Assembly: GCA_001464715.1 (NCBI GenBank)
Contig: LNDT01000025.1
Span: 86,612-150,611 of the forward strand
DNA length: 64,000 nt
Direction of reading: 5' to 3'
Source of the DNA: Bdellovibrionales bacterium Ga0074137
Lineage (GTDB): Bacteria > Bdellovibrionota > Bdellovibrionia > Bdellovibrionales > JAMPXM01
Shown here: positions 3,954 through 23,994 of the stretch, in pieces
Position numbering within the stretch: the first letter of the stretch is position 1
How the letters are laid out: the number at the start of each line of letters is the position of its first letter
The notes under the pieces: model-generated
The model's database searches: none
What the model was told of the DNA's origin: nothing
The model's input: the letters and a program-made list of their open reading frames with translations, nothing else
Position numbers and translations under genes: made by a program

Positions 3954-3982
3954 CGAACCCGACGCAAGTCGGGTTCGCTTTT
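3954..3982 (+). terminator. rho-independent terminator
   Basis: 10-bp stem cgaacccgac / gtcgggttcg with a gcaa loop, followed by ctttt. It lies directly after the stop at 3948. Confidence 0.6.
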
Positions 3983-4057
3983 AAGAGCAAGGCCTCTTTC
4001 AGGGCTTCTTGGCAGCCTCCACTGGATGTCCCAGTTTTAAAATGCGACACTTTCTTT

Positions 4058-7735: not shown

Positions 7736-8175
7736 TTCGCCGGTGCGGTGTCAGGCGTTGTCGAAGGAGCCGCGGCCGGTGCCGCCGCAGGCGCGGTAGC
7801 TGAAGGCGCAGTCGCCGGAGTTGTCGCCGCTGGCGTCGTCGAAGCCGGAGCTTCGATGGGTGCCGTCGCTGCCGCTGCCGGCATCGAATCGAAAACCGAG
7901 CCCGCATCACGGCGGCTAAGAATTGTCAGCAGAAGGCAGCAAATACCGAAGACGATCGCCGCGTACCGAGTCATCTTCTGAAGCAAAGTCGCTCCGCCAG
8001 TAGCTCCGATAACAGTGTTCGAACCGCCGCCGCCAAACATGGCGCTTCCGCCAGTGCTTTTAGGATCTTGAAGAAGCACGAGCGCAATAAGGAGGAAGCA
8101 AGCAATGATGTGAATGATCGCGATGACGGTCAGCATGAAAATTCCTAACGCAATTATCAGTTCGAAAGATTTCAA
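7732..8175 (-). CDS. secG: preprotein translocase subunit SecG with a long Ala/Pro/Thr-rich C-terminal tail
   Basis: Two TM helices flank LLQDPKSTGGSAMFGGGGSN, the SecG signature. The tail is about 55 aa of AATAPIEAPASTTPAATTPA... Confidence 0.75.
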   Translation of the reverse strand: MKSFELIIALGIFMLTVIAIIHIIACFLLIALVLLQDPKSTGGSAMFGGGGSNTVIGATGGATLLQKMTRYAAIVFGICCLLLTILSRRDAGSVFDSMPAAAATAPIEAPASTTPAATTPATAPSATAPAAAPAAAPSTTPDTAPAK

Positions 8176-8222
8176 TTTATAGATTGGCTTGGGGGGCGTC
8201 GTCCATTGTTTTTCGTGACGCG

Positions 8223-9185
8223 TTAAGCGGCTTTTCGTGCGCTTTCACGGGCAACGACCAGGCCGACGACGTGCGCAGTCATCTGGGCGAACCGAATTTC
8301 GAAATCCGAGAGCACGGTTTTGCTATCGGGGAGGCGAACCGAGACCACGCCCCAGATGTCGCCGCCGACCCGAACCGGGCAAACCAGCATGGCGTTAAAG
8401 GAAATGGACTTTGTTTGGGCAGCAATCGCGGCCATCGTCGTGTCGTCTTTAAGGTTGTCCAGGGCCAAGGTTTTTTCAGACCGCAAAACGAAAATCACTT
8501 CCGGATATTTCGCCAGATCCAATTTCAAACCATCGATGTCTTTTTTGTCGCTCGACGCGCGAACCGTGCCCTCGTTCACTCCAAGCCGCGCTTCAATCGC
8601 CGACACACGAACGGCCTCGGTCGCAAGCCCCAGCATTCCTGTCAGGTTGTAAAGCGACTGCGCGAGAGGTGCGAGTTTCAGACTTTCTCGCAAGAGAAGT
8701 TCGGTCAAATGCATATAGTGAAGAGCGCGCCCTGAATCGGACACGTCGCCGGCTTTCAGCTCGGTGACCTGACGCTTGGTTTGAAGGTGAAGAATGAGGC
8801 GGCTGACCAGGTCTTCAGCTTTGATAGGCTTAACAAGGTAGTCGCTGGCTCCGGCCTTTAAACACTCTTTCACATTGGCCATGGAGTTGTGCGAGGACAT
8901 GACGAAAACGCGCGATTTTAATTCCGTGTTTTTGTCGTCCGCCAAAATGCCTTCGGCTTTTAGTTTTTTTAAGAATGCGGGGCCGACCATGTCTGACATA
9001 ACCATGTCGTAGAGGACAAAATGTGGGCACCATTCGCGAACCGTTTCCAAAGCGTCGGCGCCCGACGTCACCGTGCGGACTTGAAAGCCGCGCTCACTCA
9101 GCGAATCACGCAATTTGTCCGAGACAAACTGAGTTTCCTCGGCCAAAAGTATTCGGGTGTCGGATGGATGCCGCGGCTTGCTCAA
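8223..9185 (-). CDS. response regulator (receiver domain) fused to a GAF-like domain
   Basis: REC pattern ILLAEE...VLYDMVMSDM...SDYLVKPI. The C-terminal ~170 aa is GAF-like. No DNA-binding domain seen. Confidence 0.7.
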   Translation of the reverse strand: MSKPRHPSDTRILLAEETQFVSDKLRDSLSERGFQVRTVTSGADALETVREWCPHFVLYDMVMSDMVGPAFLKKLKAEGILADDKNTELKSRVFVMSSHNSMANVKECLKAGASDYLVKPIKAEDLVSRLILHLQTKRQVTELKAGDVSDSGRALHYMHLTELLLRESLKLAPLAQSLYNLTGMLGLATEAVRVSAIEARLGVNEGTVRASSDKKDIDGLKLDLAKYPEVIFVLRSEKTLALDNLKDDTTMAAIAAQTKSISFNAMLVCPVRVGGDIWGVVSVRLPDSKTVLSDFEIRFAQMTAHVVGLVVARESARKAA

Positions 9186-9288
9186 AGGTTAAGATTCCTC
9201 CAAGCATCTCTTCGGCCATTTGGCGGAGAAACCCGAGGATAATGCAGTGCGCAATTGCCTCGGCGTCTGCGATTAAGAAAGGGGTCTT

Positions 9289-9942
9289 ATGAGATTTCTG
9301 TCGTTTGAAGGCCTCGACGGTTCGGGGAAGTCGACTTTGATCGAAGGATTGAAGGCCGAGCTTGAGCGCCGCAAGATCAAAGTCCAGGTCACGCGCGAAC
9401 CCGGCGGTACACCTCTCGCCGAAGAAATTCGGAATCTGATTTTGAGACCCGAGGGCGGCGAGGCACCGGTCGCGGCCACCGAAATTCTTTTGTATCAAGC
9501 AAGCCGCGCCCAGCATGTTGCGAAAGTGATCGCTCCGGCGCTCGCTTTGGGAGAGTGGGTTCTTTGCGACCGTTTTAGCGAATCGACCGTGGCGTTTCAG
9601 TGTTTTGCGCGCGGGCTTGATCGCGGTGAAGTCAATCGGTTGAACCGATTTGCCGAGCAGGGGTTAAGACCCGAACTCGTCGTGTATTTAGATTTGTCGG
9701 TCGATGCCAGTCGCGCTCGTCAAAATCGCCGCGCAGAAAAAGACAGCGCTCGGTCTTTGGACCGCATCGAAAAAGAGGCCGACGCTTTTCACGAACGCGT
9801 TCGCGAAGGATTTTTGGCCCAAGTGAAGGAAGAGCCCGAGCGTTGGTTTGTTTTGGATGCGGATCTAAGTCCCTCTGATCTTTTGGCAAAAACGGTCAGT
9901 GAACTTTCGCGCCGTGGTTGGTTTGAAGGGATTGGTTCATGA
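9289..9942 (+). CDS. tmk: thymidylate kinase
   Basis: P-loop FEGLDGSGKST and TREPGGTPLAEEIR motifs. ATGA overlap with holB. Confidence 0.9.
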   Translation: MRFLSFEGLDGSGKSTLIEGLKAELERRKIKVQVTREPGGTPLAEEIRNLILRPEGGEAPVAATEILLYQASRAQHVAKVIAPALALGEWVLCDRFSESTVAFQCFARGLDRGEVNRLNRFAEQGLRPELVVYLDLSVDASRARQNRRAEKDSARSLDRIEKEADAFHERVREGFLAQVKEEPERWFVLDADLSPSDLLAKTVSELSRRGWFEGIGS

Positions 9943-10886
9943 AAATCATCGGACACACCGAAGTTCGCGCGCGGCTTCGCGCAATGAAGGATCGCCTTCC
10001 GCCCTCACTTTTGTTTTCTGGCCCCGAGGGCATTGGTCGAAAGCTTGTGGCTTTGGAATTCGCGCGCGATGTGACGGGTGAAACGCGGTCTTTGGATCTG
10101 ACGCAATCCATGTCGCAAACGGAATCTTTGTTTTTCGTTTCTCCCGACGGCGCTTCGATCAAAATTGAACAGATTCGTGAAGCGCTTCATTTTCAAAGTC
10201 TTGCGCGCGATGGAAAGCCGTTATTTTTAATTTTCGATCAAGCGCATTTGATTGGGCCCCAAGCGGCGAACGCACTTTTGAAATCCGTCGAAGAGCCGCC
10301 GCCGGGCGTGCATTTTATTTTTATCACGCCGACACCTGCGTTGATGCTTCAGACGATTCGTTCGCGCTCGCAAGTGATCCGGTTTGCACCTCTTTCGGAC
10401 GACGAAGTTCGCGCCGTCGTAAAAGCGGCCGAGCCCGATTTGAAATTGGAAACGTGGACCGTTGAAATGGCTGGCGGTTCCGCAGGGCTTGCGATCGAGA
10501 TGTCTCGGGTCGGTGATGATGCGGCCGATGTTCGCCCCGTGATCGAACGCTTGGTCGATGCGTGTGGGCCCGATGGCGGAATGACTGAACGGACGGAAGC
10601 CTTGATCGGCGTGCGAGAAAATTTGAAAGATCGCGAGCGCCACGTGATGGCTTTACGTTTTTTGGTGCGCGAAATGAATTCCGCGTGGCGCTCAAAAGCC
10701 CGCGGCGAAAAACCGCTGTCGTGGCTTGGCTCGTTGCCGTTCGATTCTTTGGACGCCGCCACCGATCTCGCCCTCGAAGCCGAGGCCGACCTCTCTCGCA
10801 ACGTCGACCGCCAACTTTTGTGGGAGTCTTTTTCTTCGCGGCTTTCGCGCGTCTCACAAGCGATCGGGCGAGCACCAGCTTCGTAG
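9939..10886 (+). CDS. holB: DNA polymerase III delta-prime subunit
   Basis: LLFSGPEGIGRK Walker-A-like motif, ANALLKSVEEPP and QTIRSRSQ motifs, and its position after tmk. Confidence 0.8.
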   Translation: MKIIGHTEVRARLRAMKDRLPPSLLFSGPEGIGRKLVALEFARDVTGETRSLDLTQSMSQTESLFFVSPDGASIKIEQIREALHFQSLARDGKPLFLIFDQAHLIGPQAANALLKSVEEPPPGVHFIFITPTPALMLQTIRSRSQVIRFAPLSDDEVRAVVKAAEPDLKLETWTVEMAGGSAGLAIEMSRVGDDAADVRPVIERLVDACGPDGGMTERTEALIGVRENLKDRERHVMALRFLVREMNSAWRSKARGEKPLSWLGSLPFDSLDAATDLALEAEADLSRNVDRQLLWESFSSRLSRVSQAIGRAPAS

Positions 10887-11076
10887 CGCGCCCCGTTAGA
10901 CAAAATAGTAATTGTTTACATATAAAACTTTCTTTGGATGAATAGTCGCTGACTCTTTTTTAGAGCGGAGGCCGTGCGTGGTGGGGAAGTTTCAGCTTTT
11001 TTTGGATGGTATTGTTACGAAGTTTGGCTTTGGCGATTGGTTTTGCGATTGTGCCGTTCGGCTAAAACGCGGCCAA

Positions 11077-14000
11077 ATGGCGATACTATATTCAGTTTCC
11101 TTTTTGCTTGCCGCAACTCCATCAATGGCTTGTCACATTGATCCAGCTCAGCAAGCCTCCCTGGATTTTGCGAGCGAATCATGTATTAACGATTATGCCG
11201 GAGTTTGGGAGGGAACTTATTATTACAACTACGGCACTCCGTACATGAACTACACCTGTACCAATGGTGGTGGTGTCGTCAGCTATTTCACCGGTCTTCA
11301 CTGCCCGACGCGGCCAGTAGAACCGCCAACAAGTATGGCTCCATCACCGACAACGGCGAACAGCTGCCCAATAAAAGGTTCTGTCATTCGTCCCGAATCT
11401 CGGGTGATCGAAGAGAACATTTCTATTGCCGGTACAGGGTACACTCTTAACTACTCAAGCGATCGAGCGTTTGGCTATTCGTCCAATCGTTACAAGCACG
11501 TAAATACTTATGTTGGCGAGTGTTTAGCCTTACGAACTCGTCATGAGACGGGCGGTGGATCTCCTCTTCCGCCCGAGTGCCAGAGTCGCGATGTGCGAAT
11601 CGAAGTCGCAGGAAGAGTCTTCAACCCGACGGTCGTCAACAGTAACCCAGCAGGTTATCAGTTCTTTTGGGATGGACTCGATGCCAGCGGAAACTTCACT
11701 TCTGGTTCGGGTCTTGCGAAATTCACCATCACCGACATTCCGGCCGATGTGAATGAAGTCCCAGCGACTTACTCTCAGCCCATCGGTTCGTTTTACTCAA
11801 TCATAATAGGTCTTGGCGGCTGGACGATTTCTCCGGTTCATTTTTATGATGTTCATCAAGCGACAGTCTTTCGCGGCGATGGATCGAAATTCAAAACCCT
11901 TTCGGCGGCTCTTTCTGGCGGAACCTACTCTGTTCCATCTTCGGATGCGTCTGAAGTCTATGTTTTCGATTCAACAGGTCGGCACCTGCAGACGAAGACA
12001 GGAATTAAGGGCACCGTTATTTTGACGATGACTTACGTGGCAGGTAAAATTTCGACGATCACAGACGCATTCTCAAACGTGACGACTGTCAATTACATCT
12101 CTAATAAACCAGTTTCGATTGTTGGACCGTTTGGTCATACGACAACTCTCGCGACCGACGCGGATGGGTACTTGACTGCGGTTACAAGCCCATCGGCCGA
12201 AACATTTAACATGACCTACTATTCAGGCGCAGCGAAAGGTCTTCTTCAGAATTTTCAAAAGCCCAAAGGTATTGTCACCAGCCTAAGCTACGACAGTTTC
12301 GGTCTTCTCACCTATGATTCGAGTTCCGCTGGAAGTTCTTTATCACTTTTGTCGACATTCCCGGACGTCGTTGAAGCGACCTCAGATCTGGGAATCAAGA
12401 CGGAGTACCTTAGGTCGATAACCTCACTTGGTGCTACGACGCTTACGAAAACAGGCCCCGGTGCAATGAATAGCACCTTCACTCATTCAGTAACACCTGA
12501 TGGTATTTTGCAGTACATACAAGGCACGGACAACATCGGCGTAACTCTTTACGACAACAAGACCGCAGATCCTCGCTTCCCATCCGTTTTCGAAACAAAC
12601 AATTTTACGCAGCAAACGTCCAGTTATCTTCGTAGTTTTGCCGTCACAAAGGCGGCGACGTTAAGCAATCCGGATGATCCCTTCAGCGTTGTCGACTTGA
12701 CTGAAACTACCGTCTTGAATTCTTCAAAGACAACGACGTCGGCGTACCTTTCTTCGACGTCGAAGTTCACGAGGACTTCGCCGGTGGGTAGAAAGAACTA
12801 TGTGACGGTCGACTCCTTTGAGCGTCCGATCTCGACGCAGTTTGCGACCTACGCACCGGTCACCGTTTCCTACGATACGCGCGGACGCGTGTCGACGGTC
12901 GCACAAGGCACCTCGAGAACTTCGACCTTCACATATGACTCCAGCGGAAACCTACAGTCGATCACGAATCCGTTAAGCCAAACGAAGACTTTCGGCTACG
13001 ACTCTTCTGGGCGAGTGACGAGCGAAACTTTTCCAGATTCACGGGTGATCAGCTACGCCTATGATCTGAATGGAAACTTAGCTAGTGTGACTCCGCCAGG
13101 GGGCCTTGCGCACTCGTTTGTTTCGAATGGTTTCGATCTCATTGGGAAATACACAAGTCCCGCAGTGAGTTTCTTTGGAGTGGAAGTCCCGGCCAAGAAA
13201 GTATCATCAAAACTGGCTACGATTTATAATTCAGCTATCCAGTGGGCGGCCGAATTTTTGCGGACATTTTTACCGGAAGCTTCGTCGAAAGTTCGAAGGC
13301 TTCTTGTAAACCGCGACACGGACTATTTTTACGACAATGATAGAAAGCTGACTTCCGTTGTCCGGCCTGATGGTGCCACCGCGAGCTTCACATATAGTGC
13401 GACGTCAGGGCGCCTCGATGGAATCGTTACGCCCCTTGGTAACTACGTAATCAACCAGAATTCTTACTATAGCTATATAGATTCAGTCGTTTCGCCAGAT
13501 GGGGTTACTCAGACCTTTTCGCATGACGGCCCGTTCTTGATGAGCGCGATAAATTCTGGTGCAACATCGGGATCGGTTTATTTCACTTACAATAACGAGT
13601 TCCAGTTAGCCTCCTCAAAAGTCAATACAGCCACGACACTAAATTATGTCTACGACAATGATGGTCTTGTGACGACGGCAGGGAATCAAACGATCACCCG
13701 AAGCACAACGACGGGTTTTCCCACCAAGACGACCTTGTCGACTGCGAACGAAAATTACACGTACTCGACGTCGTTCGGGGAACTCGCCTCCATCCAAGGA
13801 AAGTACGGAACAACCACAAATATTTATCAGTCAGTTTTAACAAGAGATGATCTGTCTCGGATTGTTCAGAAAGTTGAAACGGTCGGCGTTCTGGCTTCGA
13901 ATACATACGCATACACCTTCGACTCTTCGGGAAGATTGACGACCGTTCTCAAAAACAGTGCGCCTCATTCTGCATATGTCTATGACTCGAATTCAAATCG

Positions 14001-15054
14001 CACGTCAGTCACTCGAAACGGGACGACTTTGACAGCGACATTTGATGAGCAAGACCGAATCGTGACGTTTGGAACAAAGACCTACGCCCACAACGATGCG
14101 GGCGAGGTGCTGTCGATCACAGACACGTCAACCGCGCCTTCGTCGGTAACCACTTACACGTACGATGTCTTTGGAAACTTGAAGTCGGTCAGTCTTCCGA
14201 ACAGCACCGTAATTTCATATGTGCTGGATGGTCAGAATCGTCGTGTAGGGAAGAAAGTCGGCGTCACTCTTCAGAAACAATTCGTTTGGTTCGATCAGCT
14301 TCGCCCGGCCGCAGAATTGAACGGAACCGGCGCGATCGTTTCACAATTTGTTTATGGCATTAAAGGCAATGTCCCTGACTACATCATAAAAGGTTCAGTT
14401 CGCTACAAGCTAATGACCGATCACTTAGGAAGTGTCGTAGCCGTCGTTCACTCAACCAACGGAACAGTCGCCCAAAGAATCGAGTACGACGAATTCGGCC
14501 GCGTCCTCAGCGACACAAGCCCCGGCTTCCAACCGTTTGGTTTCGCTGGTGGGATTTATGACAGTGACACGGGGTTAGTGCTGTTCGGTGCCAGAACCTA
14601 CGATGCCGAAACGGGACGGTGGTTGAGTAAGGATCCGATTCTATTCGCCGGGGGCGATACGAACCTCTACGGGTACGTGATGAACGACCCAATAAATTTG
14701 GTAGATCCGAGCGGATTGAGCCAGAAAGAAGTAGATTTTGCGATGGGATGGATTCGGCGAAATCGACCGGACCTGGTCAAAGGTATTGGTGGGGTGAAAG
14801 CGACGGCGACGAATTTGCTGCCAAGCGGAACCACTGGTTTTACCCTACCGGGGCGCATACTGATCGACTCAGCTGCTTCTGATAATCAGAGTAATGCGAT
14901 TTATCTAGTAGCCCACGAACTGCAACACGCTCAAAGGGGAGTGTTGAATACAATACTTTTCCAAACTCAGGCGGAGCATGATTCAATCTATACAAACGCT
15001 TTTCGGGTCCAAGACCTTTATGATTCGCAGCAGTCGAATCCGAGTTGTCGATGA
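11077..15054 (+). CDS. Rhs/YD-repeat polymorphic toxin with a signal peptide and an HExxH (metallopeptidase-like) C-terminal toxin domain
   Basis: Many YD-type repeats (YDSSGNL, YAYDLNGNL, YTYDVFGNL). The Rhs core end is [43 protein letters not shown], followed by a ~112-aa tip containing VAHELQHA. The ATG at 11077 gives the signal-like MAILYSVSFLLAATPSMA; the ORF is open from GTG at 10978. Confidence 0.85.
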   Translation: MAILYSVSFLLAATPSMACHIDPAQQASLDFASESCINDYAGVWEGTYYYNYGTPYMNYTCTNGGGVVSYFTGLHCPTRPVEPPTSMAPSPTTANSCPIKGSVIRPESRVIEENISIAGTGYTLNYSSDRAFGYSSNRYKHVNTYVGECLALRTRHETGGGSPLPPECQSRDVRIEVAGRVFNPTVVNSNPAGYQFFWDGLDASGNFTSGSGLAKFTITDIPADVNEVPATYSQPIGSFYSIIIGLGGWTISPVHFYDVHQATVFRGDGSKFKTLSAALSGGTYSVPSSDASEVYVFDSTGRHLQTKTGIKGTVILTMTYVAGKISTITDAFSNVTTVNYISNKPVSIVGPFGHTTTLATDADGYLTAVTSPSAETFNMTYYSGAAKGLLQNFQKPKGIVTSLSYDSFGLLTYDSSSAGSSLSLLSTFPDVVEATSDLGIKTEYLRSITSLGATTLTKTGPGAMNSTFTHSVTPDGILQYIQGTDNIGVTLYDNKTADPRFPSVFETNNFTQQTSSYLRSFAVTKAATLSNPDDPFSVVDLTETTVLNSSKTTTSAYLSSTSKFTRTSPVGRKNYVTVDSFERPISTQFATYAPVTVSYDTRGRVSTVAQGTSRTSTFTYDSSGNLQSITNPLSQTKTFGYDSSGRVTSETFPDSRVISYAYDLNGNLASVTPPGGLAHSFVSNGFDLIGKYTSPAVSFFGVEVPAKKVSSKLATIYNSAIQWAAEFLRTFLPEASSKVRRLLVNRDTDYFYDNDRKLTSVVRPDGATASFTYSATSGRLDGIVTPLGNYVINQNSYYSYIDSVVSPDGVTQTFSHDGPFLMSAINSGATSGSVYFTYNNEFQLASSKVNTATTLNYVYDNDGLVTTAGNQTITRSTTTGFPTKTTLSTANENYTYSTSFGELASIQGKYGTTTNIYQSVLTRDDLSRIVQKVETVGVLASNTYAYTFDSSGRLTTVLKNSAPHSAYVYDSNSNRTSVTRNGTTLTATFDEQDRIVTFGTKTYAHNDAGEVLSITDTSTAPSSVTTYTYDVFGNLKSVSLPNSTVISYVLDGQNRRVGKKVGVTLQKQFVWFDQLRPAAELNGTGAIVSQFVYGIKGNVPDYIIKGSVRYKLMTDHLGSVVAVVHSTNGTVAQRIEYDEFGRVLSDTSPGFQPFGFAGGIYDSDTGLVLFGARTYDAETGRWLSKDPILFAGGDTNLYGYVMNDPINLVDPSGLSQKEVDFAMGWIRRNRPDLVKGIGGVKATATNLLPSGTTGFTLPGRILIDSAASDNQSNAIYLVAHELQHAQRGVLNTILFQTQAEHDSIYTNAFRVQDLYDSQQSNPSCR

Positions 15055-15368
15055 TGATGAACAAGATATTTGTATTCCAACGAATTGTGTTTCCAATCGT
15101 GATCCTGCTTTTCCTTAAGTCTATCGCTCCCGTGAAGTTGGCCATCGAGGGATTGATGAGAGCAGGATGTGTTGAGCAGTGCGAAAGCAGTCGGCAGCTG
15201 TTATTCTCAGCGGTGGATGCCTTCAAATGGATTGGCATTCTTAGTGCGCTATTTCTCATCTCTTGCGCTGTCATGGAGGTTGTCTCGAATCGTAAGGCGC
15301 TGGTCGCATGGCTAACTTTGGGACTCAATCTGATCGCGCTGATCGGTGCCGTAGTGTTGACTTGGTAG
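15051..15368 (+). CDS. small 3-TM membrane protein, candidate cognate immunity protein for the Rhs tip
   Basis: The ATG overlaps the Rhs stop (cgATGAtgatg). Three hydrophobic helices. Assigned from position only. Confidence 0.5.
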   Translation: MMMNKIFVFQRIVFPIVILLFLKSIAPVKLAIEGLMRAGCVEQCESSRQLLFSAVDAFKWIGILSALFLISCAVMEVVSNRKALVAWLTLGLNLIALIGAVVLTW

Positions 15369-15501: not shown

Positions 15502-15699
15502 ATGAAGCGGCTGAATATTTTTTTCGAGGTCGTGGTTGTGCTGGCCTGGGGCGCATTTGTGGGGATGGGGGCCTCCCATCTAACACCTAGCGAAGTCGTG
15601 TTTGAGATAGCGGGGGTAATCTCCGGTTTGTCTTTTGGTATCCTGATTGCGTGGGGCATTCGCTTTCTCTCGCTTTCGCTTAAAGCCCAGGGACGATAG
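15502..15699 (+). CDS. small 2-TM membrane protein (possible extra/orphan immunity gene)
   Basis: 65-aa ORF with two clear hydrophobic segments. No homology evidence. Confidence 0.3.
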   Translation: MKRLNIFFEVVVVLAWGAFVGMGASHLTPSEVVFEIAGVISGLSFGILIAWGIRFLSLSLKAQGR

Positions 15700-15952
15700 C
15701 GCCGCAATCTGTGCCAGGCGATTTTTCGATAACAGCTGCGGGTCTCAGGCCCGCCATTCTTTACTGTCGGCGATCGACAAGAGCATGATTAAATTTTGAA
15801 TACGAAATCCCAGACTTCATCGCACCTTTGGCGTCCCGTTGCATGTTCGCAACGAGTCTTGAGGCGGCGAAGACGCCTCCGCATGCGATAAAAGATGAAA
15901 GTGCCATTCAAACTGCGAGTTCCAAAAGTTTCCCCATTTTAATCCTATCTCC

Positions 15953-15976
15953 AATTTTAACGGCCGGTTCGCGGCC
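15953..15976 (+). repeat. left copy of an imperfect direct repeat (candidate att site)
   Basis: aattttaacggccggttcgcggcc. It matches 21810-21835 (aattttCGaacggccggAtcgcggcc) with one 2-nt indel and one mismatch. Weaker similarity continues for about 50 nt. Confidence 0.4.
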
Positions 15977-16028
15977 GACTTATTCCTAAAAATTTCCGAA
16001 AAGTCTCGAAATCTGCATTTTCTGACGA

Positions 16029-17063
16029 TCAATTCCCCGTCTCTGGTACCCCTGAAACTTCAAAAAATTCAGCTCTCGAAACTTTAAAACGGCCGTAAAG
16101 TTCTTCAGTCATTCGAACGTGCTGATGACCCATGATCTTTTGAAGTTCGTTGATATCGCGCCCAGCTTTCAGAAAGTTGACGGCGAATGAATAGCGAAGG
16201 TCGCGGTAGACCCAGTCTTGTTCAATCTTCAGCTGCCGCTTTAAGATGCGAAGCTCACGAACGAGACAGTGCTTATACAAAGGGCGTCCTTCCAGGTTCG
16301 TAAAAACGTATTCGCTCAACTGTTCGAGGACTTTAAGTGCAGCGACTAGATTTTCAGAAATCGGCAGGATGCGAGTCTGAATCTTCTCACCATCTCGAAG
16401 AACAACTCTTGCCGCGCCAAAATCGAGGTCTCGCCATTTGAGCTCTAGAATGTCATGAGTTTTTGCGGCCGTTTCACACACGAGAAGCAAAATTGGATAG
16501 AGGTAACCTGGGCTCAGTCGTTTAGCTCCTTCAAGGGCTTCTTCGATTTGCTTTGGTTTTACCCAAATGTGTTTTCGTTTGTAGATCTTGCTTCGGCCCA
16601 TCGTGATTTTTGATTGAGGAGAATCCCCAATAATTCCTCGCGACGTCATCCATTTAAAGAAGCCTTGCAGCTGATATTTGCGCGTCGCGAGACTGTGGCT
16701 GGTGTAGTCGTATTCAAGCTTCTGGCGCTGGTAGAAGCTTCGCATCCCAAGCTCATCAATTTGCGAAGGGCGATAAATCGCAAATTGATTTAAAAAATCC
16801 CGAATCAACTGGGGACTTCGAATAAGCGAAGCATCTGGCACTTCTTCAGCGTACAAACCAAGAAGCTCTTCGACCGAATATTCCTTTAATGGCCGACGCT
16901 GTTCTTTGATTGGCTTCCACATGCGAAAACGGTTGTAAGCTTCCGTCGCTTTCCACTCTTCTTTAAACGTCTCGGCGATGCGTTCTCGTTTTAAAGAGTT
17001 GAAATAGGAAACGACGAATTCTCCGTTCGGCAAAGGGTAGTAGCGAATGTCGATTGGCTTCAT
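16029..17063 (-). CDS. tyrosine recombinase family protein, divergent active site
   Basis: C-terminal RDLRYSFAVNFL ... GHQHVRMTEELYGRF (box II with His and Tyr). Aligned to its neighbour, box I reads ETAAKTHD instead of TGARRSE. 4-nt overlap with the upstream recombinase gene. Confidence 0.8.
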   Translation of the reverse strand: MKPIDIRYYPLPNGEFVVSYFNSLKRERIAETFKEEWKATEAYNRFRMWKPIKEQRRPLKEYSVEELLGLYAEEVPDASLIRSPQLIRDFLNQFAIYRPSQIDELGMRSFYQRQKLEYDYTSHSLATRKYQLQGFFKWMTSRGIIGDSPQSKITMGRSKIYKRKHIWVKPKQIEEALEGAKRLSPGYLYPILLLVCETAAKTHDILELKWRDLDFGAARVVLRDGEKIQTRILPISENLVAALKVLEQLSEYVFTNLEGRPLYKHCLVRELRILKRQLKIEQDWVYRDLRYSFAVNFLKAGRDINELQKIMGHQHVRMTEELYGRFKVSRAEFFEVSGVPETGN

Positions 17064-18100
17064 ATTATCTCCGTTTCATTTTTTTCATAAGGGCATGCGT
17101 TTTCGATATCTTGGGCACCGATCTGCCCGTAGGTATCAACGGTCACGTCGATACTTCGGTGACCTAAGATGGCTTGGAGCTCATACATGTTCCCCTTCTG
17201 CTTTAGGAAGTTGTACGCGAACGAGTGGCGAAGTGAGTGTGGTCCCCAATGCTTTCCGATTGGGAATTGCTTTCTGAATCGCCTGAGATGTTTTCCGATG
17301 ATGTGTCGGGGCACCATCTCGCCATTATGGTAAGGCACAACGTGTTCGTGGCTATGGCTTGCGAGGAACTCTTCGAGAAAGACTTTGAGGCTTTTCGTGA
17401 TTCGGATGGATCGGTCTTCACCGTTTTTGGTCCGCCGGAAATGCACAAGACCAGTTTCAAAATCGACGTCGTGTCTTTTGAGTTTTAAAACCTCGCTTCG
17501 GCGGGCACCTGTGTAGGCCGCAATAAATAGAATCGGATAAAGCGTCTTCGGACTAAAGACTCTTACGCCGTCGAGAACCTTCATCACTTCGTCCACAGAT
17601 AGAACAACTCGCGGGCGTCGTGGCGGCGGCTTCCTGGCGAATCGCACTTTCATAAGAGGCGAATCTGAAATTACGCCCTCGTCTTCGAGATGAATGAAGA
17701 AGCTATTGAGCTCGGACTTAATTGTGTTGAGCGTTCGATCCGAAAGATCATTCTCTTCCTTGATTTTCTTAAACCACAACGAGAGTTCGGTTTTTCCAAC
17801 CTGGTTAAGGGGCCGTTTACCAAACGACTGACAAAAAGATTCAAAATGCTTCTTTCGATTTCGCACTCGCGAATTCGGAAACTGCTCCAGATAAATCTTC
17901 ATGTATTGTTCAATCGGCGTTTGGTTAAGGCTCTGCGGCCCTTTGGTTTGAAACTTAAGCTCGATGTCACTTCGGTAGCGTTTCGCTTCTACTTTCGATT
18001 CGAACTTTGTTCGTTTCCGCTTCTGTGTTGTTGGATCTTTGTAGCAGACGACGTGATGGCCATCTTTAAGCTGATAGATTTTAACTTTAAGAGAATTCAT
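17060..18100 (-). CDS. tyrosine recombinase / phage-type integrase
   Basis: Canonical YTGARRSEVLKL, HSLRHSFAYNFL and LGHRSIDVTVDTYGQI motifs. The ATG at 18100 lies 2 nt after the upstream stop; the ORF is open to 18139. Confidence 0.85.
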   Translation of the reverse strand: MNSLKVKIYQLKDGHHVVCYKDPTTQKRKRTKFESKVEAKRYRSDIELKFQTKGPQSLNQTPIEQYMKIYLEQFPNSRVRNRKKHFESFCQSFGKRPLNQVGKTELSLWFKKIKEENDLSDRTLNTIKSELNSFFIHLEDEGVISDSPLMKVRFARKPPPRRPRVVLSVDEVMKVLDGVRVFSPKTLYPILFIAAYTGARRSEVLKLKRHDVDFETGLVHFRRTKNGEDRSIRITKSLKVFLEEFLASHSHEHVVPYHNGEMVPRHIIGKHLRRFRKQFPIGKHWGPHSLRHSFAYNFLKQKGNMYELQAILGHRSIDVTVDTYGQIGAQDIENACPYEKNETEII

Positions 18101-18102
18101 AT

Positions 18103-19347
18103 CTAGAAACTCCCTTTGGCAGACTTCGATTCGGTCCAAGCCTTTAGTTTTTGACGGTCGACCACGAACTTTTTCTTTAAGCCAACGTTCAATGACGGAA
18201 ACGTCGGATCCGTTTTGACGAGGCTATAGATCGTCCAAGTTGAAACTCTCATCATTTTTGCGACCTCCTTAATTGTGATGAATCCGTTATTAATTTCGGA
18301 TTCTTTATCGGCCGGCCTACAGTCCTCGAAATTCTCGAGCAACGGTTGACACGGCCGGGTCGTTTCTTTGACGGCCGTGTCAGCGAGCTCTGTTAGTTCA
18401 ATCGATCCAACGGTTGGTCCGCGATGCTTTGGGTACGGAATGTTCTGAAGCTCAGGATGCAGTGTCTTGAATTTCGCCAAGAGATTCTTTGTTTCTTTTT
18501 TGTCGAGGCCAGCGAAGGAAGCATATTTGTGTTTTGGTTCGACCATTCGCATTTTGCAAAGGGCCTTGTGGCTTTTCGCGTGGAGCTTGATGGCTTCCGC
18601 TGTTTTATCTGGAATCGCCGACCAATTGACGACGCGGTTTCCGTTACCATTGAATCCATCCCAATGGTGACGCCACTGGATTCCGAGTTCGCGACAATAT
18701 CTTTTGATCTGACTCGTTTGGCGAAACTGTCGGTCCGTAAACCAACCGAGGTCTGGGTAATTGGCATCGAAGTACTCGTACCTGGTTCCCGAGTTTTGCC
18801 CGAGGTAAATGAAGTTGCACGCTTGGTAGATCGTGCCGAGCTCTCTGGCTGCGACGTCACCGTAGGCGGTAAAAATGCGAAAGCCTGTGTTCTTCACCAT
18901 CCATCGAATTGAAAACATGATGAGTGCGGAAGCCAAATTCTTCGGCGACCACGAGATACATGCACCGCGACTAATGAGCTTTTCTAGGTTTCGGTCTTCT
19001 TCGCCCAATAGGTTCGAGAAACTGTTTGGCGTCGCCATGACGATGACCCCGGCTAACTGACCCCTGTAGGTCGCAATGAAGCGGTGGGTGGGTCTGTTGG
19101 GCATTTTGCCGAGCCATTCGTGACGCCGAATGAACTGAACGATCTCCATCCATCTTTGGAATTCAGTTTTCGGGACGTAAGAAAACTCGAAGTCGCCGAC
19201 TCGAAGCTTCTCGGCGTCCTCTTTCGTAAGTCCTGCGGCTTTTAAATCCTCTTCTAGGTTCTTGAGTCGGATCTCATACTGCCAGCAGTGACCAGCTGAA
19301 TAATCGTCTGTTGGACGAGAGACGGGTTGAGGAATAAGGTCTTCCAT
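18103..19347 (-). CDS. fusion protein: Mom-like GNAT-fold domain (N-terminal) plus Xis/AlpA-type HTH (C-terminal)
   Basis: The N-terminal half has HEWLGKMP, AGVIVMATP and RIFTAYGDVAARELGTIYQACNFIYLG. This resembles the Mom-family pattern SYAD..GH.G.IYQA.NW.Y.G. The C-terminus, ITIKEVAKMMRVSTWTIYSLVK...FVVDRQKLKAWT, is a typical excisionase-type HTH. It is the first gene of an operon with both recombinases. The CDS itself is confident; the domain call is motif-level. Confidence 0.45.
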   Translation of the reverse strand: MEDLIPQPVSRPTDDYSAGHCWQYEIRLKNLEEDLKAAGLTKEDAEKLRVGDFEFSYVPKTEFQRWMEIVQFIRRHEWLGKMPNRPTHRFIATYRGQLAGVIVMATPNSFSNLLGEEDRNLEKLISRGACISWSPKNLASALIMFSIRWMVKNTGFRIFTAYGDVAARELGTIYQACNFIYLGQNSGTRYEYFDANYPDLGWFTDRQFRQTSQIKRYCRELGIQWRHHWDGFNGNGNRVVNWSAIPDKTAEAIKLHAKSHKALCKMRMVEPKHKYASFAGLDKKETKNLLAKFKTLHPELQNIPYPKHRGPTVGSIELTELADTAVKETTRPCQPLLENFEDCRPADKESEINNGFITIKEVAKMMRVSTWTIYSLVKTDPTFPSLNVGLKKKFVVDRQKLKAWTESKSAKGSF

Positions 19348-19879
19348 CGGGATACCTCCAGAGTGAGTACGATATAGTACTCAGTTGAAGCTCGGCTCGG
19401 TCGCCAAGGTTCGTTGAGTGATTGAAACTCTTAGGAAATTTTGATTCTAAATTTTTTAAGGCGGTCGCCTAGGTGATGGGAAGGCGACGAGAAGGCGACG
19501 GGGTTGCGACTCTTGTTTTGTGACTAGTTGGCGACACGAGAATATCGAGTCGCTTACCTATTTGTATTGCAAGGCGTACCAACAAATCGACAAAAGTGAT
19601 TTAAGGCTTTGATGTGGCGTGGGAATTTTGATTTTCGCCGAAAAAGCGGAATGAAGAAACATTCAAAAGATTTGAATGTTTCCGGACGCTGATTCAGTGA
19701 TTTCAATATCTTATCCGTGTTCAAATAATTTGAAGGCGTTCACGGAATTTGAGCTTAAGTCTTTTGAATAACTCGAAAGAGCCCACACCGACCGCGTCGC
19801 ACAACTCTGACTGCTCGAATACTTGGACAAAGAAATAAACTGAACTGCGGCAGTATCTCCCTGCGACTAAAGAAGCTGT

Positions 19880-20551
19880 TCAATCTTTAATTCGAGGAAA
19901 ATTGCTGAGGGAGTCGACGTTGCGTTCACCGCTGAATGTGCGGTGCCGTCCCATGCCGCTAATATTCATTCGGTAACTGGGTGCTGTCGACCAAGGGTCG
20001 ACGCCTTTCGAAATCACCAACTGCCCCTCTCGATCGTAACAGGCGACAGTCTGGTTTTCTTGGAAAGGAAACTGCTGACCTTCGGCTGCAACAGGATTCT
20101 TAATCTTTGCTGAGTAGAAGTCCGATTCCCGATGTTCTAGGCCAACCTGGTCTGCGCGATTGCTGAATCCCTCGATATAAAGGTCGCATCCGCCCAAATA
20201 GATTTCTTGGTTATCGACAGAATCGTAAATCGTCGCGCCGATGCGATCATAAGTTTCGAAACGCCATCGAAAGTGCCAAAAACTGTGTCTACGTTCATCG
20301 CCGCGAGAAAGTTCGTATAGATTTCGCAAGCTATCTAGGCGGAGAATTTTTGTATGAGCGTGGATAGCTGCGGTCTGTTTTTGGATTGCTTCGGTATTGG
20401 CTTTTATCGCAACTGAAATCTCAGAACTTTCGTGATTAAGTTTGTTTGAGAACCAAATTGCGTACACCGAAATTCCGGTACCAACAACCGCCCCGATGAC
20501 TGTAGCCATATTGATCCAACCAATTTCCATATTCGCAAAGACACTGTACAT
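19880..20551 (-). CDS. hypothetical protein with an N-terminal TM helix and an unknown C-terminal domain
   Basis: TM segment ATVIGAVVGTGISVYAIWF, then a short coiled segment, then a ~150-aa domain with no motif I recognise. It lies 86 nt downstream of the AbiGi-like gene on the same strand. Confidence 0.55.
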   Translation of the reverse strand: MYSVFANMEIGWINMATVIGAVVGTGISVYAIWFSNKLNHESSEISVAIKANTEAIQKQTAAIHAHTKILRLDSLRNLYELSRGDERRHSFWHFRWRFETYDRIGATIYDSVDNQEIYLGGCDLYIEGFSNRADQVGLEHRESDFYSAKIKNPVAAEGQQFPFQENQTVACYDREGQLVISKGVDPWSTAPSYRMNISGMGRHRTFSGERNVDSLSNFPRIKD

Positions 20552-20637
20552 CCAGCTAGGTTCCCATATTCTACAAAATTGATGCGATAATTGAACTATG
20601 GCGACTGCGTTTTGTTAATTGATCGTGGTGCAGTTTT

Positions 20638-21447
20638 CTACAAAGCAGAGGCCAAATCTTGCCGACCTTTCGATTTAAAGTGGCCGATCAGAACGTCAGT
20701 GTCCCAGTCTGGATCCACAAACATAATCTTGTCAGCGCAAAGTTTTTCGAACTCAGGAATTCGCCCCTCCGGGCACAGACCGAATGCTACGTCGGAAAAT
20801 TCGAACTTCAAATCTCCGACGTGACGCCACTCACGTTCCCAGCGAAAGTCGATTTCGTAGGCCAGCGGGAATTTGGCTTTTCTGGCAGGGCCGAAGGATT
20901 CGAAGAGCGGAAGCAATGGTTTGCAAGCGGTGAGGAACTGCGGATCCGCAAGACGATCGACTGCGTTGTAGATGTCGTCTTTTCTTGAGTCGAAATAAAA
21001 AATCGGATGGCCGCCACGATCGCGAATGAAATCAGTGAAGAATGCGAGGCCAAACTTTTGATAACGATTGAGTTTATACGCGTACTGTGTGGAATTCTGC
21101 GTCGAGCGATAAAACGATCGAAGTTCGCGGAGCGGAGTCTCTGAAAAGCAGACGCATTTCAACCAATCAGGAGGGACGGACCGTCGAAGTTTACTATAGA
21201 TATTGATATCGAATTTAAAGTGACCGAACGGCGCTCTTCCTTCGAGCTTGGGGCCATTGGTCGCGTGAAGAATTTGTTTTAGAGATTTGTCGGCCACTAA
21301 ATTTAACGAGTTGCCGAACTGATAGTGTCCTGATTTAGGCAAGTACTTTTCGTAGTTCTCATAGCTGCCATTTTTTGTCAGATGAATCAGGAAGTTCGAC
21401 AGGTCGGCACGATCAGAGGAAAAGGATTCGCTTGGATTTCCGCCCAC
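20638..21447 (-). CDS. AbiGi-like abortive-infection family protein
   Basis: Motif series FLIHLTK, CVCFSETPL, YQKFGLAF..GGHPIFYFD and FRWEREWRHV parallels the AbiGi family (lfHfTk, CFcDiPL, YG.yGI.f, EREWR). GTG start. Confidence 0.55.
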   Translation of the reverse strand: MGGNPSESFSSDRADLSNFLIHLTKNGSYENYEKYLPKSGHYQFGNSLNLVADKSLKQILHATNGPKLEGRAPFGHFKFDINIYSKLRRSVPPDWLKCVCFSETPLRELRSFYRSTQNSTQYAYKLNRYQKFGLAFFTDFIRDRGGHPIFYFDSRKDDIYNAVDRLADPQFLTACKPLLPLFESFGPARKAKFPLAYEIDFRWEREWRHVGDLKFEFSDVAFGLCPEGRIPEFEKLCADKIMFVDPDWDTDVLIGHFKSKGRQDLASAL

Positions 21448-21503
21448 TTAAAAGCTCGCCTTTCCGTTGATTTTGGCACATAGATCGCATACTTAGTAAG
21501 GAG

Positions 21504-21800
21504 ATGAATAATTCAACGAAGCTTCAAATTTTCACCTTCAGCGACCGTTTTAATTGGTCATTTCTAGATGTTCAAACTGAAGCGTTCAATGCGGCACTTC
21601 GTCGAGCAGAAATCATGGGTTGGTCCGATATTCGCCTCGTGCCAGTAAGCCTCACTCCGAAAATTCAGAACGACGTCCGGAATTATGAATTTGAAATTTG
21701 GGGCGCCGGTGAAGCGGTTCTCGAATCATCGCAAGAATCCGAGTCGGCATTGTCGCCGGTCGAAACTTTCCGTAACGTTGCTCGAGACACCGAACTTTAA
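21504..21800 (+). CDS. hypothetical 98-aa protein
   Basis: ATG ORF divergent from the AbiGi-like gene, with an acidic C-terminus. No motif recognised. Confidence 0.4.
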   Translation: MNNSTKLQIFTFSDRFNWSFLDVQTEAFNAALRRAEIMGWSDIRLVPVSLTPKIQNDVRNYEFEIWGAGEAVLESSQESESALSPVETFRNVARDTEL

Positions 21801-21809
21801 ATCAGTCAA

Positions 21810-21835
21810 AATTTTCGAACGGCCGGATCGCGGCC
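21810..21835 (+). repeat. right copy of an imperfect direct repeat (candidate att site)
   Basis: See 15953-15976. It contains the same ggccg-N5-cggcc hairpin. Confidence 0.4.
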
Positions 21836-21949: not shown

Positions 21950-22459
21950 TTGTGCACTTATGGCCGTATCAGACCTTACGATGCGGAAACCGGAAGATGG
22001 CTCTCGAAGGACCCCATTTTATTCGCAGGGGGAGACACAAATCTGTATGGGTACGTCCTCGCGGACCCCGTCAATTTGATTGACCCTAGTGGGCTTGCCT
22101 CGTTCCAGGAGAATCTGGCGTATCGACAGAATGCAAACAGTCGAGTGGCTGACCAAGTAACACGTATGGCGACCGGATTTGCGATTGGAAGTTCATTCGC
22201 CAGAAATATGCGGCCGCTAGGTCTCGGTGTCGGATTGTTCGAAGCCTATCGCTATGGTTTTAATATTCCGCTTTTGGGCGTAAGAGGGACCTTACTCGGG
22301 CTCGTAGCGAACTCGGCGGCCCAATCGGCCTTCATATTCGGAGCATTTACGGCTGGCGCTTGGGCCGGTGACTACATTGGGGCGGCGATTGACACTTACG
22401 TCGACAACAACGGGGGCCAATGTAATGCTTTGAGTGGGGCCGGGTTCGGTTCTCATTAG
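21950..22459 (+). CDS. orphan Rhs C-terminal module: Rhs core-end remnant plus an alternative Gly/Ala-rich (glycine-zipper) toxin tip
   Basis: [41 protein letters not shown] matches the end of the main Rhs core. It is followed by a hydrophobic tip with GAWAGDYIG (GxxxGxxxG). There is an in-frame stop immediately upstream, and a TTG start preceded by GGAG. Confidence 0.7.
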
Positions 22460-22467: not shown

Positions 22468-22830
22468 TTGGGCATCGTATATGATAGCGAGCATCAGAAA
22501 CGAGAGACATTCATTTTCAAAAATGGCGACTACCGAGGTGTAATAGCTTTTTTTGCTCTCGCTCCGGTTGCGGTAGTCAGCATTTGGTTTGCCTATCATT
22601 ACCGAAGTGGTGTGGGCGGCATGTTAGCTATAGGATGTGTCGGCTTCATGATTTGGGCAGTGAGCGGAAAATGCCAAATCTGCGGACGACGGTATCTTTT
22701 AGGCTATCTAAATGGTCATTTTGGTAGCGACTGGTTTCATGAAATTATGCATTCGAAAATTTGTTTGAATCCGAATTGTCCTAGTCGTCACAGTTCCACC
22801 TCTCAAAAGGCGGCAGGTGATATTGGGTAG
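22468..22830 (+). CDS. membrane protein with a C-terminal Cys4 zinc-ribbon-like motif, candidate immunity protein for the orphan tip
   Basis: GGAGG lies 4 nt before the TTG start, directly after the orphan toxin stop. Two TM helices. CQICGRR ... CLNPNCPS motif. Confidence 0.45.
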   Translation: MGIVYDSEHQKRETFIFKNGDYRGVIAFFALAPVAVVSIWFAYHYRSGVGGMLAIGCVGFMIWAVSGKCQICGRRYLLGYLNGHFGSDWFHEIMHSKICLNPNCPSRHSSTSQKAAGDIG

Positions 22831-22896: not shown

Positions 22897-23994
22897 ATGG
22901 CCGACGAGTATAAAGTCAGAAGTACGTCGAATGTTTCTGCTGCGGTCGAGGACCGTGAGCTATCATGCTCGACTACAACCCGTCGAATTCTGAGACCAGA
23001 ATTAGTAGACAATCCTAAGAATGCCGACGCCTGTGTCAAAATCTCCATTGTTCATCAAAGGAAGAAGCCGAAGGATGGTTGGGAAGATGTTGAAACTGAA
23101 TCTTTGAATTCGCTTAAGGCCGGTGAGATTAGAAAGCTGAACTTGGATACCGCAGAGACATTGTCTCTTTTCACCGAGCTGAAAAACTTATTCGCGATCA
23201 AGCAAGAAAAAGGCGTCCCTTACGGTGAACGAGACATTGTCGTCGGATACGAGGGGGAAATTATTAAAGCGGACCCCAAAAGGGCGAAGGTCATTCAAGA
23301 GCTGTTGAATCAAGGACACTCCGAGCAAGTTTGGACGGAGTTGGTCAAGCATAAGCCTGACCTGGCAAATAAGCTATGCCTCTTACGAATGCATCAGAAC
23401 AGAGTAGAAGCACTGAAAGAGTTCGAGGCCGGGATGAAAGAAGAAAAGGCGGAAGCCTTCTGGCAGGATTTTTTTGAGCGCAATACATGGATATTTGGTT
23501 TTGGTCTCAACTACAGATTCTTACGACAAGTGCAGAGTCAGCCGTCATACGGAGGAACAAACGTTTCTGGAAGTGGAGCGCAGAGAGGTGACTTTCTCGC
23601 AGCGACAGAGGCAGAGGTCCGATTTACCGTTCTTGTAGAAGTAAAAAAATCCAACACAGCACTGCTTGGTCCGGAGTATCGCAACGGGGCGTTTCCTCCT
23701 AGTCAGGAGTTGGCTGGGGGCGTTGCTCAAGTGCAGACTAACTGCCGAAAGTGGGAAACCGAAGGTTCGCAGTCTGACGAAAACCGCGAAATCTTAGGTG
23801 CCGATAATATCAACAGTGTTCAGCCCAAAGGCATCTTGATTATCGGGAATACGAATCAGCTCAATTCCTCTGCCAAGAAGTCTTCGTTTGAGATTTTTCG
23901 ACGGAATTTGGCGAATCCAGAAGTCATCACTTTTGATGAGTTGTATGAGCGGGCTAAGTACTTTGTCGAACATCCGAAAGACGAAATTGAATAA
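22897..23994 (+). CDS. sduA: Shedu-type defence nuclease (DUF4263 / SduA-like) with an uncharacterised N-terminal domain
   Basis: FWQDFFERNTWIFGFGLNY; PD-(D/E)xK-like RGDFLAA...VLVEVKKS; AQVQ; ILIIGNTNQL; EVITFDELYERA. This order of motifs is typical of DUF4263. Confidence 0.7.
   Translation: MADEYKVRSTSNVSAAVEDRELSCSTTTRRILRPELVDNPKNADACVKISIVHQRKKPKDGWEDVETESLNSLKAGEIRKLNLDTAETLSLFTELKNLFAIKQEKGVPYGERDIVVGYEGEIIKADPKRAKVIQELLNQGHSEQVWTELVKHKPDLANKLCLLRMHQNRVEALKEFEAGMKEEKAEAFWQDFFERNTWIFGFGLNYRFLRQVQSQPSYGGTNVSGSGAQRGDFLAATEAEVRFTVLVEVKKSNTALLGPEYRNGAFPPSQELAGGVAQVQTNCRKWETEGSQSDENREILGADNINSVQPKGILIIGNTNQLNSSAKKSSFEIFRRNLANPEVITFDELYERAKYFVEHPKDEIE

Follow-up and report, generated by a model that had tools for sequence, protein, structure and literature searches.

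Mom-type hypermodification of DNA has so far been studied as a counter-defence of phages. Mom is a GNAT-fold enzyme that hypermodifies adenine in double-stranded DNA after replication; in the chemistry as revised in 2026, glycine is transferred from Gly-tRNA(Gly) onto adenine at N6 and a rearrangement follows, the product of Mom from phage Mu being N6-carbamoylmethyl-dA (PMC13219725). Excisionases of the Xis, AlpA and TorI type (HTH_17, TIGR01764), which occur in prophages, integrative and conjugative elements (ICEs) and actinomycete ICEs (AICEs), are winged helix-turn-helix (HTH) domains of about 60 residues, encoded directly 5' of an integrase gene and coupled to it. Here we describe a gene in which both kinds of domain appear to be joined. 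It was found in a stretch of 64,000 nucleotides (the window, to which positions refer unless a relative is named) from Bdellovibrionales bacterium Ga0074137, a predator of the Bdellovibrio type, and its 414-residue product is called Mom-HTH below. The arrangement of the reading frames indicates that the gene is translationally coupled to two genes for Xer/integron-like tyrosine recombinases, IntA and IntB (Table 1). The explanation that we favour, with moderate confidence, is that Mom-HTH would be a DNA-hypermodifying enzyme fused to the excision module of an integrative element: the HTH would tether or direct the enzyme, co-expression would time modification to mobilisation, and the DNA would thereby survive restriction in a recipient.

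The N-terminal domain and its relation to Mom

The Mom profile of Pfam (PF25680) matches residues 70-188 at 43.5 bits (E 3.7e-11), above its curated cut-off of 27.1, and PHROG 1384 ('Mom-like DNA modification protein') matches residues 69-303 (E 6e-15). An AlphaFold2 model built from 30 homologues has a mean predicted local distance difference test score (pLDDT) of 72; it is folded well over residues 22-309 and 353-411 and disordered over 310-352. In the PDB, as found with Foldseek, this model is matched best by 8BV8, the crystal structure of Mu Mom (E 6e-6, TM-score 0.53-0.61 on the target, 241-264 aligned columns), and the best in BFVD is the Mom of Salmonella phage FSL SP-031 (E 3e-9). It should be noted that the narrow profile of the family barely reaches Mom amongst PDB sequences (E 0.39), and that hhalign of alignment A2 with the single sequence of Mu Mom aligned 32 columns; the link to Mom needed pairwise BLASTP, a bridging alignment and the fold search.

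The bridging alignment (A6) contains eleven sequences, amongst them Mu Mom, a Vibrio phage homologue and four phage proteins annotated as Mom-like. In it, residues ~50-309 of the protein are collinear with the whole of Mu Mom; this covers the last strand and the YPK at the terminus, so that the C-terminal KHKY...YPK segment lies opposite NQYRY...YPK of Mom. The columns that are invariant in all eleven sequences are R127, S140, D164, G171, Y174, N178 and G183. Amongst these, R127, S140, D164 and Y174 correspond to R111, S124, D149 and Y159 of Mom in the 241-residue numbering of Silva et al. (R101, S114, D139 and Y149 in the 231-residue numbering of Karambelkar et al.), and these Mom residues are needed for activity according to both mutant studies (PMC7261163; PMC13219725). 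H76 corresponds to H58 of Mom; it and the four residues just named are all invariant in alignment A1. The arginine (R127 here) is specific to Mom and has been proposed to function in base recognition (PMC7261163). Mom also has an HTH-like insertion before its last strand, which is required for activity and has been modelled as contacting DNA (PMC13219725). A putative counterpart occurs here at the same place in the alignment (about residues 190-265); it is helical in the model and larger, about 75 residues against about 35 in Mom.

Judged from fold and conserved residues, the N-terminal part (~310 residues) belongs to the family of phage Mu Mom and is catalytically intact. The initial annotation of this stretch had recognized a Mom or Mom-like GNAT domain from the motifs HEWLGKMP, AGVIVMATP and RIFTAYGDVAARELGTIYQACNFIYLG, all of which are present in the translation. 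That identification stands: neither a lack of GNAT or Mom-like matches nor a match to an unrelated family was found, the best profile and Foldseek matches being Mom proteins. Its term 'methylcarbamoylation', on the other hand, belongs to an older model of the chemistry. There are further likenesses and differences. Expression here is plausibly timed to mobilisation, as that of Mom is to late lytic growth. Unlike Mu Mom, the protein is not phage-encoded, it has an N-terminal extension of about 50 residues, it is fused to an excisionase-type HTH, and it is co-transcribed with recombinases without a com-like translational activator.

The C-terminal domain and the coupled recombinases

An excisionase/AlpA-type HTH had been proposed for the last ~60 residues, and the searches agree. 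PHROG 66 ('excisionase and transcriptional regulator') matches the domain (E 3.8e-7), the fold search aligns it with phage excisionases (TM-score 0.64, root mean square deviation 1.3 Å, 59 columns), and many homologues carry PF12728 in precomputed annotation. Its only named sequence match in the PDB, a weak one, is an AlpA family regulator. On these profile and fold matches we regard the assignment as sound at the level of the family, although this particular sequence lies slightly under the curated thresholds. The domain resembles the excisionases in its place directly 5' of an integrase gene, and one relative (L051) has a free-standing 79-residue gene in that position; it differs in being the C-terminal part of a 414-residue enzyme, and in that its partners are Xer/integron-like recombinases with a short palindrome, not lambda-type integrases with demonstrated arm sites. 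Within the otherwise disordered stretch that connects the two domains, residues 336-345 (about 18313-18342) include a nearly invariant L...C-(R/W)-P across the family.

The stop codon of Mom-HTH (TAG, 18105-18103) is separated by 2 nt from the ATG of IntA at 18100, as the initial annotation had stated, and the stop of IntA overlaps the start of IntB by 4 nt as ATGA (17063-17060). Both downstream open reading frames (ORFs) match Phage_integrase (E 1e-21 and 3e-21), in agreement with the two-recombinase operon proposed there. IntA has the full R-K-H-R-H/W-Y catalytic set in all 17 aligned homologues. Of the 17 sequences aligned for the IntB position, 16 have Lys in place of Arg-I and one (L013) retains Arg. 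The first box-II His is missing; those kept are Arg-II, the second box-II His (a Tyr in the window copy) and the catalytic Tyr. The second recombinase of the pair thus has a conserved but non-canonical active site. XerA, XerC, XerD and the integron integrases are the closest curated families for both proteins, all far under the cut-off.

Amongst paired recombinases, XerC/XerD at dif, TnpA/TnpB of Tn554, the SE/GInt elements and the RIT elements share with this locus two adjacent, overlapping recombinase genes; further points of likeness are the FtsK-family ATPase of full-size relatives and the proposed core site, whose arms are inverted about a short spacer. The locus differs in the Lys at Arg-I and the missing box-II His of IntB and in the distance of both predicted recombinases from the Xer cut-offs. 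Identity with a RIT element was rejected, as RIT elements have three recombinases, and so was identity with a BIM element, which has one recombinase and an SMC-like protein. In the relatives L039, L040 and L041 (88-92% identical), IntA has a premature stop at codon 301 (e.g. L040, 4737-5777) and Mom-HTH and IntB are intact; the recombinase may be decaying in that lineage, or the assembly may be in error.

The family and its context in relatives

The fusion belongs to a large conserved family and is not a singleton. A word-indexed protein search returned 1,956 proteins at E <= 0.001, and of the 120 best clusters, 93 span 79% or more of the query, the C-terminal region included. The few clusters with names come from Bacteriovoracaceae/Bacteriovoracia and are labelled 'helix-turn-helix domain-containing protein', 'AlpA' or 'excisionase family'. 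A profile of the 300-residue Mom-like domain gave 1,058 representatives at 50% identity. Amongst GTDB species genomes there are 35 loci, mostly in Bdellovibrionota (Pseudobdellovibrionaceae, Bacteriovoracaceae, Halobacteriovoraceae, Oligoflexia), with a few from elsewhere; the PLSDB plasmid collection contained no homologue of the Mom-like domain. The comparison with L040 gives a ratio of nonsynonymous to synonymous substitution rates (dN/dS) of 0.077 over the entire gene; taken separately, the Mom domain has 0.07, the HTH 0.03 and the linker 0.29. The low values in the Mom domain and the HTH indicate that both are under purifying selection.

The order FtsK/SpoIIIE-family ATPase, a winged-helix protein of ~250 residues (p249) with weak similarity to Replic_Relax, one to three tiny ORFs, Mom-HTH, IntA and IntB is common to about 20 loci. 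Wherever the fusion is found, Mom-HTH is immediately upstream of IntA, typically with a stop/start overlap of 4 nt or else a gap of 2 nt. In one relative (L002) the FtsK-p249 module is present twice, as diverged copies (7307-13251 and 18511-21230) with about 5 kb between them, which suggests tandem elements. Versions of ~300 residues that lack the HTH follow genes for TrbI (VirB10-like) and FtsK in one genome, and others lie beside insertion sequence (IS) elements, far from any integrase. The genes of L051 run CagX-like, FtsK, p252, lipoprotein, Mom (306 residues), the separate 79-residue HTH_17 gene and a single 404-residue integrase. BLASTP detected no similarity between this small HTH protein and the HTH of the window, so the argument from a split gene rests on family and position, not on orthology.

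These relatives recall the conjugative and mobilisable elements of FtsK/TcpA type (AICE-like, MPF-FA-like) in their order of ATPase, Replic_Relax-like winged-helix protein, (Mom), Xis-like gene and integrase, and some have TrbI and CagX genes. The anti-restriction candidate, in contrast, is here not an ArdA-type inhibitor or an orphan methyltransferase but a hypermodifier of the Mom type, and the window copy is without any transfer genes.

Homologues outside the integrative elements bear on the substrate. The Vibrio phage 501E54-1, of lytic type, encodes a 290-residue homologue (identity 44%, coverage 93%), with the genes for thymidylate synthase and a Dam methylase next to it. The Mom-like 300-residue domain also forms the C-terminus of proteins of 500-890 residues (P0122-P0196) with N-terminal DUF7487, ParB-HTH, DUF559 or REase_MTES_1575 domains, and it occurs in 550-residue phage 'endonuclease-like' proteins (BFVD A0A8S5T2T4 and others). 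Since these fusion and neighbour partners all act on DNA, DNA becomes the more credible substrate of the Mom domain. The long proteins look like fusions of modification and nuclease functions.

Proposed ends of the element and its control region

Two palindromic sites, GGCCGGTTCGCGGCC and GGCCGGATCGCGGCC, bracket the IntB, IntA and Mom-HTH genes together with ORFs of 223, 269 and 98 residues, a total of 5.9 kb. They are in direct orientation, are identical at 14 of 15 positions and share a flanking AAC. The underlying pattern GGCCRNNNNNYGGCC (GGCCRN5YGGCC) occurs exactly twice in the window, against an expectation of 0.21 copies. Each palindrome consists of inverted GGCC arms with A/T-rich extensions and a centre of ~7 nt that matches between both ends of one element; the proposed crossover core is written as GGCCGG(T/A)TCGCGGCC. 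Since this is the shape of a core site for tyrosine recombinases, we read the palindromes as putative attachment (att) sites.

Several comparisons with relatives bear on these ends. Exact repeats of 20 nt are found at both corresponding positions in L009 and L043, and near-identical ones in L015, L002, L039 and L003, while other copies of the palindrome within those loci differ in their central bases. A palindrome follows the last recombinase gene at a distance of 56-184 nt in 11 of the 21 informative loci. L009 makes a twelfth: its motif at 12255 comes after IntB (end 12126), the automatic count having been keyed on a later, partial recombinase gene. The 88%-identical relatives L039-L042 share only 19679..15934 with the window, that is, the control region, the three genes and ~95 nt past IntB; homology with L039 ends ~28 nt beyond the site at 15962-15976, and other genes replace the upstream cargo there. 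The cargo of the window includes one ORF, that of 269 residues, with a weak AbiGi-like match. Neither a tRNA gene nor an Rfam feature was found as an integration target.

Upstream of Mom-HTH, GTCGC/GCGAC motifs form the densest such cluster in the window: seven within ~180 nt (about 19370-19560), against 0.8 expected. Four are direct and three inverted, and five of the seven are kept in L039. Two palindromes of the form TTCAAA-N3-TTTGAA lie further upstream (19662-19676 and 19720-19734). They were also considered as ends of the element and rejected, as they occur only in the window and near-identical relatives and fall inside the conserved module; we treat them as putative local operator-like sites. 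Cluster and palindromes together are candidate operator or accessory sites for the HTH. A scan for sigma-70 promoters found fewer sites than in shuffled sequences.

Table 1. Positions of the fusion gene, its domains, the proposed element and the adjoining RHS genes in the window.
Feature	Position	Strand	Remarks
Mom-HTH fusion gene	18103..19347	-	414 aa; GGAGG 8 nt 5' of ATG
N-terminal extension, conserved	19201-19347	-	residues 1-49
Mom-like GNAT domain	18421..19200	-	residues ~50-309; alignment A6 and fold matches
Linker, low confidence	18292..18420	-	residues 310-352; conserved C-R/W-P motif; pLDDT <50, alignment A1, dN/dS 0.29
Excisionase/AlpA-type winged HTH (HTH_17)	18106..18291	-	residues ~353-414; dN/dS 0.03
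IntA, tyrosine recombinase	17060..18100	-	346 aa; motifs ARRSE, TKNG..R, HSLRH, GH, Y
IntB, divergent tyrosine recombinase	16029..17063	-	Lys at Arg-I, first box-II His absent, tyrosine kept
Palindromic site GGCCGGTTCGCGGCC	15962-15976		56 nt past IntB stop; proposed element end (att)
Palindromic site GGCCGGATCGCGGCC	21821-21835		proposed other end; 115 nt before orphan RHS tip ORF
Upstream control region	19348..19740	-	GTCGC/GCGAC cluster and two TTCAAA-N3-TTTGAA palindromes
Variable cargo	19880..21800		223-aa ORF 19880-20551 (-), 269-aa ORF 20638-21447 (-), 98-aa ORF 21504-21800 (+)
Full-length RHS toxin gene	10978..15054	+	1,358 aa; converges on IntB; core/tip junction 14593-14742; tip with HExxH
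Two small membrane-protein ORFs	15045-15368, 15502-15699	+	between RHS tip and element; candidate immunity genes, role by position
Orphan RHS tip	21950-22459	+	repeats junction sequence
120-aa ORF	22468-22830	+	after orphan tip; candidate immunity gene

RHS arrays as the site of insertion

The element lies within an array of RHS toxin genes. The orphan tip on its far side repeats the junction of the full-length RHS gene at 76% nucleotide identity, and the two small membrane-protein ORFs on its near side have no family match. An RHS junction convergent with IntB is found 0.6-1.7 kb past it in 14 of the 17 informative loci, and most of these 14 have another on the far side. In truncated orphans, the similarity to RHS begins within a few codons of Y(D/N)P..GR(W/F). 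Palindromes were found in the window and in L003, L005, L006, L009, L011, L015, L023 and L043 (background density of the motif, 0.096 per kb), and they end 144-179 nt upstream of the Trp codon of GRW in 17 of 26 non-main junctions and in none of five full-length genes. Because of this fixed distance before truncated junctions, the arrays appear to be built of units that consist of site, leader, junction, tip and immunity gene, with the element at one such site. The picture is not uniform: in L001 and L011 the element has the opposite orientation relative to RHS, and the motif pattern is missing from L001 altogether and, in L011, from the position where it would be expected. The orphan tip of the window is 56% identical to the tip that adjoins IntB in L039, which implies that tips move relative to the element.

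Other features of these arrays are recorded here. In L001, three direct repeats of 0.9 kb (88-93% identical; 1229-2156, 3452-4366 and 14257-15184) of the 3' end of the RHS core flank the element. The HExxH motif of the main tip (14623-15054) reads AHELQH, and this tip is possibly a metallopeptidase-type toxin; the orphan tip is Gly/Ala-rich and hydrophobic and may be membrane-active. Just past the orphan tip and its putative immunity gene is a Shedu gene (22897-23994, plus strand) with SduA_N and SduA_C domains (PADLOC SduA, E 1e-67). It belongs to the same low-GC island (about 15-25.5 kb), which housekeeping genes flank on both sides on the contig.

Integrons and the rAID arrays of Bacteroidales, in which a tyrosine recombinase accompanies arrayed orphan immunity genes that have conserved motifs between them (PMC12247911 and its ref. 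16), are the nearest published analogues, capture of cassettes being putative here. As in those systems, recombinase genes abut co-oriented toxin-tip/immunity cassettes, with a conserved palindrome at a fixed distance before the truncated ones. Here, however, the cassettes carry RHS tips and a junction segment and not immunity genes alone, there are two recombinases and Mom-HTH, copies of the motif stand on either side of the recombinase unit too, as expected of an inserted element, and the phylum is a different one. Integrase genes near Rhs loci were left unexplained in an earlier paper on bee gut bacteria (PMC5727410).

A bolder proposal, which we consider doubtful, is that Mom-HTH, IntA and IntB are the engine of an integron-like shuffling of RHS cassettes. 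The unit would insert, excise and shuffle tip/immunity cassettes at a dif-like palindrome (GGCCR-N5-YGGCC with A/T-rich arms) located ahead of each truncated cassette; the short RHS junction carried by each cassette would let homologous recombination fuse a new tip to the main RHS gene; and hypermodification by the Mom domain, coupled to recombination, would protect the moving DNA or mark the sites. The association of RHS cassettes with the site is the more surprising by-product of this work, and the placement of the element at a conserved palindrome offers a testable candidate for a site-specific mechanism behind two long-debated features of RHS loci, 'C-terminal displacement' and the build-up of orphan cassettes.

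Possible functions of the fusion

If, as we favour, Mom-HTH is a hypermodifying enzyme joined to an excision module, the HTH would tether the protein at the recombination or control region of the element and would act there as a directionality factor and/or as a regulator of the operon of IntA and IntB. The Mom domain, made from the same operon, would hypermodify the DNA of the element (possibly also that of the host) exactly at mobilisation, and DNA so modified would then resist restriction upon entry into a new cell; restriction evasion is probably the purpose of the modification. Full-size relatives, with an FtsK-like translocase or coupling ATPase, a Replic_Relax-like protein and sometimes type IV secretion system (T4SS) genes, would transfer themselves, whereas the window copy would have lost its transfer genes and depend on others for movement. 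Self-marking of the element against restriction and a coupling of modification to excision, both suggested in the initial annotation, are made more plausible by the synteny with conjugation-type genes, by the relative in which Mom, HTH_17 and integrase are separate genes, and by purifying selection.

Several points weigh against this explanation. That the Mom domain would hypermodify DNA, and which adduct it would form, is argued from homology, and in this clade E77 stands at the position of Mom Y59 and A166 at that of Mom R151 (A6). Both residues are important in Mu Mom, so the donor or the chemistry may differ. The clade has HEW where phage Moms have HYS, and R168 occurs two residues past A166; R151 is missing at its position in other phage Mom-like proteins of A6 too and is not a family-wide feature. 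HTH_17 (PF12728) matches residues 357-408 at 24.5 bits, just below its cut-off of 27, and TIGR01764 ('excise') scores 20.9, below its cut-off of 28.8. Xer-like recombinases that act on short core sites often work without an Xis-type factor. No exact match to the predicted empty site TTTTAACGGCCGGWTCGCGGCCAGAAC or to the predicted circle junction TTTCGAACGGCCGGWTCGCGGCCGACTT was present in metagenome_contigs, which is a weak test because exact identity was required. The palindromes could double as terminators; chance or a terminator role alone is insufficient, because the spacers are identical at both ends. Finally, the transfer genes (coupling ATPase, relaxase, T4SS) that relatives possess are absent from the element in the window, so that the rationale of transfer rests on the relatives.

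One rival reading is that of a different substrate. GNATs that use or modify tRNA are diverse (PMC13219725), ordinary GNAT acetyltransferases rank closely behind Mom in the PDB fold search, and Y59 and R151 of Mom are not conserved; the Mom-like domain might act on charged tRNA, as TacT and AtaT do, or on a protein such as a recombinase, with an HTH that only autoregulates. We think this quite unlikely, as the best profile and fold matches are to Mom proteins specifically, the arginine with a proposed part in base recognition does not vary, an insertion at the place of the one that Mom requires and that is modelled as touching DNA is not only present but enlarged, and members of the clade are fused to DNA-directed ParB-HTH and restriction-endonuclease-like domains.

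Lower still in probability is an architectural or recognition role, in which the Mom-like domain would be a subunit for IntA/IntB that binds the palindrome, flips a base there or marks the site locally for directionality, with no genome-wide anti-restriction effect. Its adjacency to the recombinases is obligate even in copies without transfer genes (the window, L039, L007, L023), fusion to the HTH would concentrate the domain at one locus, and the degenerate active site of IntB suggests an unusual recombination complex. Yet the catalytic residues do not vary amongst sequences that have diverged by more than 50%, and the ~300-residue versions in the lytic-type Vibrio phage and next to IS elements are far from integrases. 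We know of no precedent for such a role in recombination, which counts against it.

Least probable is that the modification serves host or element in conflict, by protecting resident DNA from RHS or other nuclease toxins or from the element's own cargo, or as the 'modification' half of a defence system: the element does lie inside an RHS toxin array next to Shedu, and some of the cargo looks defence-like (a weak AbiGi match here; genes of HEPN and ImmA/IrrE type in relatives), but no PADLOC model matches Mom-HTH or its neighbours and cargo inside the element, and the cargo varies whereas the linkage of Mom-HTH with the recombinases and the FtsK module persists.

Significance

The component families are all known. 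What is new is their combination: a Mom-type enzyme is found amongst the core genes of chromosomal integrative elements and is fused there to an Xis-type module before an Xer-like pair. The initial annotation knew of no described fusion of this kind, and none was found in the literature searched; the mechanistic study of 2026 mined viromes and used only stand-alone Mom domains (PMC13219725). If DNA is indeed modified, these elements would provide a new anti-restriction strategy for elements mobilised by tyrosine recombinases and a natural example in which a site-specific DNA-binding domain targets a DNA-modifying enzyme, and their divergent active sites, with Glu in place of Tyr59 of Mom, may yield different adducts.

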